From Camelus ferus (Eukaryota), in assembly GCF_009834535.1 (NCBI RefSeq), contig NC_045696.1, positions 11,100,001-11,164,000 on the forward strand: a stretch of 64,000 nt of DNA. Reading direction: 5' to 3'. Under the pieces are notes generated by a model. That model was not told where the DNA came from, searched no databases, and saw nothing but the letters and a program-made list of their open reading frames with translations. Positions 54,342 through 61,084 of this stretch are shown here, in pieces. Positions within the stretch are counted from its first letter, which is position 1, and each line of letters begins with the position of its first letter. A program made the position numbers and the translations under genes.

Positions 54342-56104
54342 TAATAACCTAGAATTTTTGAGTAGTCTGATCTGAGACCCTGGTCAACATAATACATATT
54401 TATTGAGGATATGGCTCTTGTGGGAATTGTCCCAGCAGGATCAGTGCATAATTTCCTGAATGGATTTGAAAGTATATTTTTAAACATGGAGGCATGCCCC
54501 TAATTATAAAATGTAACCTATGGGATAATGGCCAGAATTCAGAGGCAGCTTCCTGCACAATGTTCAGAAGTTCTTCTTCTCCTGGTCCATGACCTGCCTG
54601 TCCGTAACCCCACTCCCCAGTGCCCATTCAATGCCGTAGTGACTAAAATGCAACTACTAAACATTCACTTGCAGAGTTGTGATCTCCAAATGTCCTCTTT
54701 TAAAGTGTAAAAATATTCATGGACTGGCTGTAAATTGGTATTATTCTCCAACACCTTGTGGTAAATTTACCAAATTTCTCTACTTTCTGATGGCTAGCTA
54801 AAAACACTTTTGTAAGGAAAGAGGTTAAGGGGAAAGGGTGGGAAAGAAGGGAGACATAGCATGGGGAGGGAGGCAGCAAAAGGCATTTTCCAGGGAGATG
54901 ATTTCCGGGAAAGCTGCAACTGTTGGGGTTTTGGAAGATGGGGGCAGCAAGAAGGTATATGTTTGTGGGGAGGTGGATGAGCAGACAGTGGACCTGGGGA
55001 TATTTATGAAGTCAAACATCATCTATGTTATGATTTTTATCAGCTGGCCTCACACATATGGCTAGCTTCTTCCCTATTAGACAAGAGGCACATTTTCTAC
55101 TCTTCTTCTGTGTTGCCTCAGAGAAATAAAAAAGGCAAATTTGATGTTTCTGTTTTCTTCTCTGCTTTATTATCATTTCAATAAGAATCTCACAACGACC
55201 TAACCTGGATCATACTAATGTGATATATCTATTGCTCAAATAATTCATTTGATAGTTATTATATGGCCTTGTAGCATCTCATATCTTCTTGGGTTCTTGG
55301 TTAAGTTCTTTATTGTGACTGAACTTAACAGGTGTGTCATAGTCTCAGTGATACTGTAGGTCTCTTGAGGGTAAGTCCACTGGGTAATATTTTTTTGAAT
55401 CTGTGATGGCTGGTTATATAATGCAATGCACATAGCAAACATTGCTGTAGGTTTATTTATCTTTTTAGCCTATGGACACTGTGTCCTTCACTAGAGTTCA
55501 TAGTGACTGCCTTTGAAGGAATGCTTCAGTCTTACTGATAACCAAGCAGATAACATTCTTGATCTCAGATAAAAGTCGTACTAAAACATTCATCACCAGA
55601 GATTAAAACTTGTATCAGAATAGAGAAAGAAATTCCATATCTCTCCTCTTTATCGTGTAATTGCATTAATTAGCTTTTAACTAGATGAAATAATGCAGGG
55701 TAACCTGTCAGGACGACTTCATCTTGTGTACAGTAATGCATACTTCTCAGATCCTGAGAGTCCATGATAAACATGCTCTAATATGAACTTGACATGATTG
55801 AGCCTCTCTTTTTTACCCCTTTCCAGAAGTTGAATTTAACCCTGTTAGATTGAAATGGGAATAAATAAACACACTTACTTAAAGGTGTGAATGAGAAGTA
55901 TGGCCACTGGAGATGAATTGATTGGCTATTAAAGGCCGGACTCTTGCGTTGGTTAATTCACCACAGTTCAGGGGCCAGTTCACAAGGTTGTAGACTCGAA
56001 AACTTGCATTCTGAGGCTTTTTGACAGCATTCCTGGTCAACCTGCCCTTTAGGATGGATTAACATTAACCAAGCCCAAGACCCAGGTCTTTGTATCCAAT
56101 TATA

Positions 56105-56445
56105 TCAACATTTATTTATTCAACACGTATTTATTGAGCCCTACAAGGTGACAAGCCCTGTTCTAGGCACTGAGAATGGAGCACTGAACTTTGTTTTGTG
56201 CCATTATAGAGTGCACATTTTAATGAAGGAGTTTGACAAACAAATGAATATCTAATATCACCAGTAGGTGATAAAGGCAATAAAGGAAAATAGAGGAGGG
56301 TAAGAAGATAGTGAGAGATAGACAGGAAGAGCCCACATGAAATGAGAATATGAGCCATGTGAGGTCTGGGCAGTTTCAGAGGGAGGGAACAGCAAGTGCA
56401 AAGGCCCTAAAGTGGATACCAGCTTAGAATGTCCCAGGAACAGTA
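56105..56445 (-). mobile_element. L2 LINE 3' fragment
   Basis: ATTTATTCAACACGTATTTATTGAG, GGGAACAGCAAGTGCAAAGGCCCT. Confidence 0.75.
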
Positions 56446-58041
56446 ATGCCTACCTTCAATAGACCAGAATGTTTTGGGGGCAAATAAAGTCCTTTCTCTC
56501 CGTGCAGGTCTTTTACCTAGAAAGCCATGTCACTATCCAGAGGCTAACTGGTGAGCTTGGTATCTGAACAAGTGGGGTTAAAGACCCAGTATCAAGGATC
56601 CCCTGCATTGGGCTGACTTGGTCTGAAGCATCGATCTGTACTTCTGCTTCACACCTCATCTCCTATGTCTCTGGCTAAAGATGGGATAGGCACTGGCAAC
56701 TTCTGTTCCTTTGTTTTTAAATCAGGCTTAAGATACACTGATGAGTGGCTCCACCACTTATCAGCTGAGTAATACTGGCAAGTTCTCCCACTCTCTCTGT
56801 CTTTGCAAAGAGACATGATAATTTGCCCAAGGACACACAGGCAGAAACTGAATAGAGTTTTTGACTGTTTCCTACCTCTCCCTGCGGTCTCTCAGGTCAG
56901 GTCCACTCTGGTTGAAAACAAACTTGGTGGTTGCAATTAACCACAGAAAAGAAAATAATCTGTATGAACAATTAGAATTCAATCTGCCTTTACTAACACG
57001 AGTATTGCCCTTTACAGCCTGAATTTTGAGCACACCCTTGTCTCTTAATACTGTTCCATCAGTTCACAACTGCTCAGGGTGCTCCCCCTGGCCTGCCCAC
57101 AACTAGTCTTTTCCACAGGCATAGCAGGCTTGCCAGACCAGGGGCTCAGGGTCAACACCATGGGCTTTTCCTATTAGAGACTCTAAATCCCCAATAAGCC
57201 ATAAAAGGCCATGTCCTCACGTGCTCACCACAGATCTCCTAACAGAACACAGAGCAGTATTTCCTCAGACTAGAAGACAAGCTGATAGGAATTCCAGGAA
57301 TCACCAAATTACTCATCTAATGACCTGATTCATGATTTATTTGACATATAACCAAGTATTGATGAAATTTTATTTAAAAATGCACCAGCCTATTTTCACT
57401 TATTTATTTATACCTCCATTTTATTTCAGAACACTTAATGCGGCTCTCAACAACTTAAAAAAACACAGTATTTTTTTTTTTCCTTTCAAAGCAGTATTTC
57501 GTACATTGCATCATTTTACCCGCTCAGAACAGCTGGCTTTGCTGTCTCAATTTTAATGACGGGGACTTAGATGTGAAGGCCGCTGAGCTGTCCACGAGGA
57601 GTTTTCACAGACGTTACTTCACTCGATCACCCCCTCCCGCCCTGCACGGCCGAAAGGGCACGCGTCCTCCCTTGAGTCTGGGGAACTGGAGGTCAGTCGG
57701 GGGCCACATCCCATCAGACAAGCCAGTCTGGTTCAGGATATGAAAGAAGCTAGGGGTCAGGGTTAGGGGCACCCTTTGGAGCAAGGACCTCCCCACAGAA
57801 GCCCCCCTGGCATCTAGCCAGGGGCATCCACCCTCCCGGCAGATCCGCAGGACCACGAATAGGCAAAGCATCGAATCCCGCTGCAAGTCAATCAAGTTCA
57901 AGAGGCACCATTAGGGCGCCCTCAGGTCAAGAACTGATCTGACTGCGCAACTACCAAGCGTCTGGGCTCCTGCCCTCCGGGAGTGGCGGTTCTGGGGGTT
58001 CTTCGCCAAGAACCCTCGAGGCCCGATGGGCCTCTCCCAGC

Positions 58042-58185
58042 TGAAAACAGAGCTGACAGCCACGGTAGCAGAAAACCGGCTCACTGAACAGCCCCGAGCT
58101 GACTCACATTTGGGACTCGATAAATACTTGTTGTGTGCATGAGCAGTACACTTATTTACTTCCTTGAAATTTCAATAAAGAGGTT
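58042..58185 (-). repeat. Left arm of 144-bp inverted repeat
   Basis: Reverse complement aligns without gaps to 58873-59016, 13 mismatches by hand count. Confidence 0.95.
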
Positions 58186-58469
58186 AAGTGTCGGTCGCCT
58201 CCGGCCGCGAGCGAGCCAGCTGCGACCGCAGCATCAAGGCGGAACCGGGGACTCCGAGTTCCCGCATCCTCACTACCTGCTTCGCGACGGACCGCCCTTC
58301 CCACAGGCCCCGCCCCTTCCGCCGACCTCCCTCACGAGTCCCCGCCTCTTCCGCCAGCCCCGCCCCTTTCAGCCCACGTGTGGGTCCGAGACGTGCGTAC
58401 GCTGTCTCTGCGTGTCCTCCAGCCAAGTCTCCAGTGTGTGGATCTCGGCGCGCCCCCTCCCTCTCGGCC

Positions 58470-58611
58470 ATGGGGGTCCCCAAGAGGAAGGCCCCAGGCG
58501 GCCAGGACGGCGCGACTCCCCGCGCGGGCGCAGCCAAACGGGCCCGCACCGAAGAGCTTACTGGCGTCCGCTTCAAGGCTCAGCTGAGGGACCCGCAGGG
58601 CGCGGGGCCAG
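58470..58611 (+). CDS. URB1: URB1 (nucleolar pre-ribosomal-associated protein 1, Npa1 homolog) coding exon 1
   Basis: GCCATGG Kozak; MGVPKRKAPGGQDGATPRAGAAKRARTEELTGVRFKAQLRDPQGAGP; 142 nt, donor AG|gtgagt. Confidence 0.95.
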
Positions 58612-58872
58612 GTGAGTGCGGGGGCCCGGGGCGGCGAACGCTTGCGGGCGAGGCGGCCTCTCGGCCTCTATCTGAATGGCTTCCGTGTGCAGACACAGCC
58701 GCTTCTTTCTGCAGCTTTTCTTACTGAGCGTCAGAGCCTAGCCTCCCGATTTGCTGTCGGGAAACCGAGGCCCGGGTGCTTGGGAGTCCAGGGCCCCGAC
58801 TTGCTGGATTGTGACAGCTCTATGCGAACACACACCTCCTTTGCCCGCGCAGCAACCCTCAGCAAGCTCTAA

Positions 58873-59016
58873 AACCTCTTTATTGCAATTTCAAGAGAAT
58901 AAATAAGGGTACTACACATGCACACAACAAATATTTATCGAGTCCCAACTGTGAGTCAGCTCGGGGCTGCTGAGTGAGCCGGTTTGCTGCTACCGAGGCT
59001 GTCAGCTCTGTTTTCA
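58873..59016 (+). repeat. Right arm of 144-bp inverted repeat (URB1 intron 1)
   Basis: AACCTCTTTATTGCAATTTC...GCTGTCAGCTCTGTTTTCA; matches the reverse complement of 58042-58185. Confidence 0.95.
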
Positions 59017-60149
59017 CTAGCTTTAATCCTCCTTCCAGTAGTCACCCTGACCTGGTAACATGTAATAAGCTACCACACGAAGCCACCACGGGACTTGTCA
59101 GTTGACCAAGATTAGTTGACTAATACGGAGAAGATTTTCTAATTTCACTTTTTGAAAAGTGTGACCATCCTTCACAACTCCTTGTAACCCATTAAAAAGT
59201 ATAAAGGTTATGAAGACAAAACACAATTGAATATACCAGTATGTGGAAACACTAGCACTGTGTCAAAGTTAAAAAAAAAACAATGAATGTTTACTCTCAA
59301 GTGAAAAGTTAAGTTAATGGTCAGAATATCCTCAATTTCTAGGTTGTCTTCCACAGATTTTGTTTTTATTTCTGTTAATTCTTAAATTTTTAATTAATTA
59401 ATTAATATTAAATGGAAGCACAGCCACAATGTGTCAATTTTTGGTGTACAACAGATTTTGTTTTTAAACATTTGATACCTGCAACTGTCTGCAACTGCCA
59501 GCTAGTGCTGGGAAGATAGTATCTGCATTAGCACAGAACTATACATTTCATTCATTCATTCATTCATTCGTTTATTATTTACAAGGGGCTGTTATTTGCT
59601 AGAGTAGGGATAAAATGGTGAGTAAGAATCAGATACAGGCCTGCCATTGTGAGCTTATGAATAGTCAGTTGAGAAGGCAGATGTAAATCAGTAAAGTTGC
59701 ACACAAACTGTTTTCAGCACAAATCCTCTGAAAGATAGGAATAGGAATCTTTCTGGTAGAAGAAAGAGTATATTTAATTATTTGAAAGGTTGTATCCATA
59801 GGCATATTCATGGTTTTGCCCAGAGAGTTCCATTTCTTTTGGGCCCTGCATTTGAACAGGTTTCAGAAGAAAACCAGGGCTGATGGGTAGTGGGCGCAGG
59901 TGAAGGAGCTGGGAGATGAGGTGGAGCTGAAGTTAGTGGGTCAAAGTGGGAATCCCTTTAGGAGGCTCTGTTGGATTTGTGTTTGAATCTGGTCTCTATC
60001 TTGGATTCTCTCTCCATTTTGTTTCGTTCTCATAACTCTGTGTGGTAGGCTCACCTGACTGAAGATCGGGGAAGTGGAATTGGTAAGTGTTAGGGGGTTT
60101 CGTTTTCATCTAGATATTTGGGAAGGTTTTTTTTCTGTTGTGTTTTGTT

Positions 60150-60705
60150 TGTCCAGCTTTATTGAGATATTATTGACATATAATGTATGTAAGTTTAAGA
60201 TGTACAGTGTGATGATGTGATACATATAGATAGTATGAAACAATTACAATAAGGTTAGTTAACGCTGCCATCCCCTTATATAACTACCACTTTTTTTTGT
60301 GGTGATAATGTTTAAGATCTACTCTCTTAATAACTTTCAAGTATATGATACAGTATTGTAACTGTAGTCACCACGCTGTACATTAGATCCTCAGAACTTA
60401 CACATCTTAGAGCTGTATGTTTACACCCTTTGACCAACATCTCCCTATATCACCGCCCCCCCCCCCCAGCCCCAGGCAACCTCCACTCCACTCTCTGTTT
60501 CAATGAGTTCGGAGTTTTTAGATTCTACATGTGAGTGAGAACGTGCAGTATTTGTCTTTCCCTGTCGCACTTTTTTCACTTAATGCCCTCAAGATCCACA
60601 TATGTTGTCGCAAGAAGCAAGGTTTCCTTCTTTTTTAAGGCTGAATATTTTATTGTGTAGATTTCTGAATATAGATATAGATATACCACATTTTCTTTAT
60701 CAGTT
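60150..60705 (-). mobile_element. L1 (L1MA-like) 3' end in URB1 intron 1
   Basis: CAGCTTTATTGAGATAT, GCTGTACATTAGATCCTCAGAACTTA, GCAGTATTTGTCTTTC. Confidence 0.85.
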
Positions 60706-61084
60706 CTCTGATTATACCCCCTTTGTGGTAGGGGTGGGGGGCAGGTAAGCAGGGTTAGATTGATAAAGACCCAGAGGGTGCTCGGGGGTGGATCAGCGTC
60801 AGCACCGGGGAGGACCCCTGGATCAAGAACGGTTCTGCTCTGGGCCAGTTCCTTTTAAAATTGTTGCCCATGACTTAACTGGTGACAGAGAAGAAGCCGT
60901 GTCCTAACCCTCGGTCTCCCCGTCTTCACACTGCTGCTCTTTTCTCCAGCTCAGAAAGTGGCAAGTCCCATCACCTGGACGTTCCTGCCAGGACTGTCAC
61001 TCTGTGACAGTAGCAGCTGGGTTTTTTGTTTTTTTTTTTAAAGAGACTGTCTTTGTTAACATCTGATCATAACTCTTCTTTCAG

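Follow-up and report, generated by a model that had tools for sequence, protein, structure and literature searches.

An inverted repeat bracketing the camel URB1 promoter and its probable origin as a copy of an intron-1 segment

The URB1 promoter and the repeat around it

The window, i.e., the whole stretch of DNA that was analyzed, comprises 64,000 nucleotides of Camelus ferus, and all positions are counted from its first letter. The gene downstream of the promoter described here is camel URB1 (nucleolar pre-ribosomal-associated protein 1). The peptide encoded by its first exon (47 residues) was 100% identical to the URB1 N-terminus of Camelus dromedarius and C. bactrianus (three Camelus records). 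The other 37 matches, out of 40 proteins found at E ≤ 0.001 among 78 candidates, showed 68–94% identity to it. A repeat search of the window gave an ungapped inverted repeat with two arms of 144 nt each (58042–58185 and 58873–59016), separated by a spacer of 687 nt in which the promoter and exon 1 are located. The features of the locus are as follows:

58042..58185, + strand: left arm, the putative derived inverted copy of an intron-1 segment, 284 nt upstream of the URB1 ATG
58116..58133, + strand: old-repeat core motif of 18 nt in the left arm, MIR/L2-tail-like
58174..58179, + strand: AATAAA hexamer in the left arm, close to its inner end, directed at the promoter
58186..58872, + strand: spacer of 687 nt, containing exon 1 between the CpG-island promoter of URB1 and the first part of intron 1
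58292, 58310, and 58360 (CCGCCC) and 58629 (GGGCGG), + strand: GC boxes, motif positions in the spacer
58375, + strand: E-box CACGTG, motif position in the spacer
58470..58611, + strand: coding part of URB1 exon 1 (ATG at 58470, 47 codons and one base)
58612, + strand: GT of the exon-1 donor motif (AG/GTGAGT)
58873..59016, + strand: right arm, the putative ancestral source in URB1 intron 1, beginning 261 nt past the exon-1 donor
58879..58884, − strand: mirror copy of the AATAAA hexamer in the right arm, about 10 nt from its inner end, directed at the promoter
58925..58942, − strand: old-repeat core motif, MIR/L2-tail-like, in the right arm; the P0007 peptides (see below) read through the equivalent place in another mammal

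By our own count, the arms are complementary at 131 of 144 positions (91%) with no gaps. The 13 mismatches read from the mismatch list (6 transitions and 7 transversions) are scattered along the arm, and the longest identical run is 20 nt. Differences occur about once in 11 nt, so 31-letter words are specific to each arm. The edges are sharp, with no similarity in the 80 nt beyond either arm end. When the left and right halves of 56000–61000 were compared by sensitive blastn, the arm pair was found with an E-value of 1.9e-45, and the sole other match between the halves was an A/T-rich one of 37 nt (E 0.37). The E-value of the arm pair was 2.2e-45 in the window and 4.7e-50 against the whole assembly, which is far beyond chance. 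An earlier note on this DNA, made from the letters alone, had given the same arm coordinates, the ungapped alignment, and the count of 131/144, and the repeat search and the recount agreed with it. The GC boxes, E-box, ATG, and exon-1 donor that it had placed in the spacer were all located.

The GC content is 0.44 in the left arm and 0.45 in the right arm. The left arm sits between DNA of GC 0.60 and 0.68, and the right arm is located where the CpG island fades into the AT-rich intron. As the earlier note had stated, CpGs are retained in both arms: there are four in each, at matching arm positions (22, 36, 54, and 77). Neither a poly(A) tail nor a target-site duplication was found in the flanks and outer flanks of the arms. 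The right arm contains a further AATAAA at 58898 on the + strand, which is the sense of the URB1 pre-mRNA.

The spacer has a GC content of 0.68 and a CpG observed/expected ratio of 0.88. Within the core promoter, a small tandem duplication was observed at 58275–58368: two units of 44 nt at a spacing of 50 nt, with 70% similarity, both of which end in a GC box. A second CpG-rich patch (57400–57700, CpG observed/expected 0.85) is found on the far side of an AT-rich stretch, about 0.8–1 kb before the URB1 ATG, and could mark the start of a divergent transcript. Further into intron 1, an interspersed repeat with at least 12 genomic relatives at 73–82% identity occupies 59358–59467, and a direct repeat pair of 23 nt (59346–59368 and 59444–59466) was found in it.

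Copy number and content of the arms

The searched assembly comprised 2,087,093,976 bases in 2043 contigs. Because the DNA search passes over very common words, its result was cross-checked in three other ways. The earlier note had proposed searching the genome with one arm and had allowed for a young repeat whose copies are generally this similar. In the 2.09-Gb assembly, the DNA search returned two arm copies only, at E ≤ 0.001 and likewise at E ≤ 10. A 32-letter arm pattern with up to three mismatches matched both arms alone, genome-wide. A 20-letter pattern from the outer end of the arm, allowing as many as two mismatches, gave two exact matches and 39 scattered ones, all 39 with exactly two mismatches; these are noise and not a family. 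With 57600–59500 as the query, the same DNA search yielded 12 matches at 73–82% for 59358–59467 and nothing new for the arms, and a second copy of this whole 1.9-kb stretch was not found in the assembly. In the window, no third arm copy or weak relative was detected by blastn, nhmmer, or a 42-nt ungapped scan, and Rfam yielded nothing beyond a sub-threshold chance hit (sar RNA, E 0.18). The arm does not belong to a young repeat of many copies.

The arm core had been described earlier as resembling the 3' end of an ancient L2, while the arms themselves were held not to be independent old copies of such an element. The first of these statements was only partly supported, through the 18-nt motif. 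This motif (16 specified bases) had 936 genomic matches against 4 for a reversed control. The consensus of 28 sampled motif loci contained a conserved block of about 70 nt, ending just past the motif, which in our reading is the 3' tail of MIR/L2. The rest of the arm scored 7.0 against the family consensus, compared with 6.46 ± 1.24 for shuffled sequences, and 830 of 2000 shuffles scored as high or higher. The arm also extends about 50 nt past the end of the consensus. An HMM of the 28 repeat loci matched the arms with an E-value of about 5e-5, but this value is circular, the loci having been picked by the arm's own motif. Any old repeat in the arm would be no more than a decayed fragment, accompanied by unique neighboring DNA. 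Such a content is expected of a segmental copy and not of a new retroposition, and the second statement, on the arms not being independent L2/MIR copies, was borne out.

The arms in other mammals

The protein search with exon 1 also returned 30 short "proteins" of 86–362 aa, in which a gene caller had read through URB1 exon 1 of other mammals into the promoter and intron 1. These read-through ORFs (P0005–P0041) in public protein collections are annotation artefacts on short host contigs and are usable as proxies for orthologous non-coding DNA. After back-translation into the bases possible at each position, they were aligned with the camel DNA; the outgroup comparison is one with degenerate translated ORFs, not with DNA. 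A search of metagenome contigs for relatives of URB1 exon 1 gave 596 pattern matches, none of which was confirmed. Plain tblastn of the ORFs forced low-identity alignments through the arm and was uninformative. A frameshift-aware protein-to-DNA alignment gave shuffle scores that were too high (P0009 left flank 36, shuffles 36.5 ± 5.8).

On the intron side, P0010 was colinear with camel from the ATG to 59017, one base past the outer end of the right arm. Its identity at non-degenerate positions was 82/86 in exon 1, 96/119 in the intron, and 60/72 in the arm. The last 70 residues of P0010 scored 49.6 against the right arm, compared with 9.2 ± 1.2 for 25 shuffled arms (z 32.9). Four of 11 ORF tails beat all 25 shuffles against the right arm, namely P0010, P0028 (z 5.7), P0007 (z 4.7), and P0016 (z 3.7); the remaining seven reached only the first few arm codons or had no match. 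These translated tails indicate that the right arm is an old resident of URB1 intron 1 and represents the ancestral state.

The upstream side was covered by nine ORFs extending at least 100 aa beyond the ATG. Three were informative, having a left-flank match above all 25 shuffles. The camel left flank (144 nt) scored 35.6 against P0032 (12.5 ± 1.3 for shuffled sequences, z 17.9), 19.1 against P0025 (12.0 ± 2.1, z 3.4), and 16.5 against P0009 (11.9 ± 1.7, z 2.7; a short match). The left arm itself was unmatched in P0032, P0025, and P0009 (z 0.9, 0.7, and 2.0, respectively). In a long-gap alignment, P0009 skipped 58041–58177 in one piece, and P0032 and P0025 skipped 130 and 129 nt, respectively, each in three pieces. 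The camel left arm has stops in all three + frames, and the three ORFs are open across the site. The other six upstream ORFs had no left-flank match and were uninformative; borderline left-arm scores were obtained for two of them (P0020, 12.0 with a shuffle maximum of 11.5; P0005, 12.5 with a maximum of 12.5). The exon-1 peptide of P0009 was closest to that of Physeter (45/47 residues), and the one of P0025 to that of Pongo (44/47). Judged by these proxies, the left arm is absent from a cetacean-like lineage (P0009), a primate-like lineage (P0025), and a third lineage (P0032). Promoter length varies among species in the ORF proxies, and the distance from the left-arm site to the ATG was, by our own reckoning, about 100 nt longer in P0032 than in camel.

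Since the right arm is present and the left arm absent in other mammals, the right arm would be ancestral and the left arm derived. In the simplest reading, the intron-1 segment was copied in inverted form on the camel lineage, giving rise to the left arm. An AT-rich left arm in GC-rich DNA, with no poly(A) tail or target-site duplication, fits this reading. Spurious read-through ORFs can thus substitute for orthologous non-coding DNA when genomes are lacking.

Origin of the repeat, alternatives, and known systems

We consider it likely that 144 nt of URB1 intron 1 were copied once, in inverted orientation, to a place 284 nt upstream of the ATG in the camel lineage, and that drift followed. 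The starting state would have been a right arm in intron 1, common to other mammals and carrying a decayed MIR/L2-type tail. A template 687 nt away (arm to arm) would then have been copied as its reverse complement into GC-rich upstream DNA, after which both copies would have drifted to 91% identity. Most likely, the nascent strand at a replication fork changed over to the opposite template, or a break was repaired from a template, which is equally possible. The form of the event would correspond to type "1-4-3-2" of the four-point model, in which the strand leaves its template, copies a nearby reverse complement, and returns. The CpG-island promoter is a plausible site of fork stalling.

Several properties bear on this assignment. 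The left arm has its reverse complement close by on the chromosome (131/144, at a distance of 687 nt), and no other copy was found in the genome. By proxy, the insertion is derived, as P0010 has the source and P0032, P0025, and P0009 are without the insert. Neither microhomology nor a size and distance within the published range was found. No microhomology was seen at either junction, where the neighboring bases differ between the target and source flanks, and this is a weak test given the 9% later divergence. The earlier note had offered a local inverted duplication as one of two origins, and this was the right class of event, with the source present and the copy absent in the ORF proxies.

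The divergence between the arms is 9.0%. Between camel and P0010, 12 of 72 positions in the arm and 23 of 119 in the intron differ, i.e., 17–19%. If rates were equal, the inverted copy would be roughly half as old as the split of the P0010 species from camel, and it would then be older than the separation of Old World from New World camelids and occur in all living ones. At the rates usually given for mammals, its age would be some tens of millions of years. With P0010 as the outgroup, six of the 13 arm differences had the right-arm state in P0010, two the left-arm state, three both, and one neither; one was unaligned. The P0010 tail also scored nearly equally on the two arms (49.6 on the right and 51.6 on the left). 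Both arms appear to have changed since copying, and no asymmetry between them is claimed.

The inverted repeat is probably an old copying scar without present function, neutrality being assumed. An acquired function, which we regard as unlikely, would be that of an RNA stem (editing, exon-1 circularisation, small RNAs), of a poly(A) signal shielding the promoter, or of a DNA structure affecting promoter firing. It is favored by the presence of the repeat in every DNA-like run listed (see below), by the inward-pointing AATAAA near the inner end of each arm, and by the predicted fold. The 975 nt as a single RNA fold with the arms fully paired at −532.1 kcal/mol, compared with −376.6 ± 8.6 for shuffled sequences (z −18). 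In the genome, however, the two arms lie on either side of the promoter motifs, the left one upstream of them and the right one in intron 1; URB1 pre-mRNA would therefore carry one arm only, and the normal transcript should hold the right arm alone. The 13 mismatches have accumulated with no compensating pattern. With a spacer of 687 nt, extrusion of a cruciform from duplex DNA is very unlikely. The more specific proposal that camels now use the inverted repeat around the promoter seems to us improbable. In that proposal, a read-through or alternative-start transcript with both arms would form a double-stranded RNA stem around exon 1, serving editing, circularisation, or promoter-associated small RNAs, or the inward-pointing AATAAA of the left arm would stop upstream transcription short of the URB1 promoter. 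No new regulatory mechanism is indicated by the URB1 inverted repeat.

The other origin offered earlier was arm-to-arm gene conversion, in which two old copies are kept alike by concerted evolution. The arms are 91% identical although old MIR/L2 copies are far more diverged, and all four CpGs are retained in both. CpG retention is nevertheless expected beside an unmethylated CpG island. The left arm is missing in all three of the informative ORF proxies reaching the left flank, which stand for at least three lineages, and the right arm is present in another mammal. Mammalian recombination needs roughly 200 nt of identity, against a longest identical run of 20 nt here, and the P0010 outgroup supports six right-arm and two left-arm states. 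We therefore find gene conversion very improbable. The identity of 91% would be high because a single copy event took place later. The 9% divergence is most simply the copy's age, and homogenisation is not needed. High identity of nearby inverted copies need not imply gene conversion.

An ancestral mammalian repeat, with the left arm deleted independently elsewhere, is of the same very low probability. The ORF proxies show absence only, and the direction of change is not given by them alone. Yet at least three separate, near-exact deletions would be needed (in the cetacean-like, primate-like, and P0032 lineages). Homogenisation would be needed as well, the arms differing by 9% versus 17–19% between camel and P0010.

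Mis-assembly of one arm is very unlikely, judged by indirect evidence. The layout is based on the assembly and on the word shares of DNA-like runs, and the arrangement is given as assembled. Fourteen DNA-like runs contained 0.98–1.00 of 181 sampled 31-letter words from 57700–59400, and these words are arm-specific. If one arm were missing, about a tenth of the words would be lost by our estimate, and the share would fall to about 0.9. Eight of the 14 runs were not marked as a possible source of the assembly; they came from four studies, and one had a second organism label. The word shares of RNA runs were 0.28–0.75 and were left out of the evidence.

Two young interspersed insertions (SINE/MITE), or a transposon-like cassette with terminal inverted repeats carrying the promoter, can practically be dismissed: the arm edges are sharp and the core has the motif of an abundant repeat family, but there are only two arm copies in the genome, target-site duplications are absent, the arm outside the 18-nt motif is no closer to the family consensus than shuffles, and the spacer and right arm occupy their place in species without the left arm.

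A DNA transposon or foldback cassette was also considered and rejected, there being no outer-flank duplication, no second 1.9-kb copy, and a spacer that is orthologous in other mammals. The cassette-like or invertible layout suggested in the earlier note was not supported either, as species that have no left arm do have the spacer and right arm in position, and neither a target-site duplication nor a further copy was found.

Invertible promoter segments between inverted repeats are known from the bacterial fim and hin switches, and inversions between long inverted repeats from FLNA-EMD on the eutherian X. The URB1 locus is like them in that a promoter-bearing segment lies between inverted repeats. 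Near-identity extends over kilobases in the FLNA-EMD X-linked cases, whereas the URB1 arms measure 144 nt at 91% identity, with no identical run longer than 20 nt. Arms of this length and divergence would not recombine with each other, and identity tracts of 20 nt argue against inversion by that route. We know of no recombinase system for promoter inversion of such a kind in mammals.

Inverted Alu or MIR pairs flanking exons promote circular RNA formation or ADAR editing; these pairs lie in both introns around an internal exon and are co-transcribed. As in these pairs, the URB1 copies are inverted, enclose an exon at a spacing of about 1 kb, and would be able to pair in RNA. Unlike them, one URB1 arm lies upstream of the exon-1 promoter, and the arms appear to be one local duplication and not two transposon insertions.

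The likely single inverted copying at URB1 is closer to replication-based events. The four-point template-switch model covers reverse-complement copies from a nearby template that create an inverted repeat, as types 1-4-3-2 and 3-2-1-4 (PMC5453318; Loytynoja & Goldman 2017). The URB1 repeat is like the inverted repeats treated there in its nearby reverse-complement source and its insertion-free outgroups. In one great-ape screen, fragments were assumed to be about 10 nt in expected length, and the template had to lie within 100 nt (PMC7954356). With 144 nt copied from 687 nt away, the URB1 copy is well outside that range. Compared with the four-point events as described, the URB1 switch points are without visible microhomology.

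In our literature search, no description of an inverted repeat at the URB1 locus was found, as the earlier note had also held. FoSTeS/MMBIR inverted duplications are usually of kilobase to megabase size, have junction microhomology, and are studied as pathogenic copy-number changes. The URB1 event would share with them a switch of replication to a template in inverted orientation, possibly where a fork had stalled, and differs from them in being fixed and 144 nt in size. Copied from about 0.7 kb away, these 144 nt fall in size between the short ape events and the kilobase-scale disease rearrangements. Events of this kind are already known, and the URB1 case is an unusually large, well-polarised example, fixed beside the promoter of an essential gene of ribosome biogenesis.
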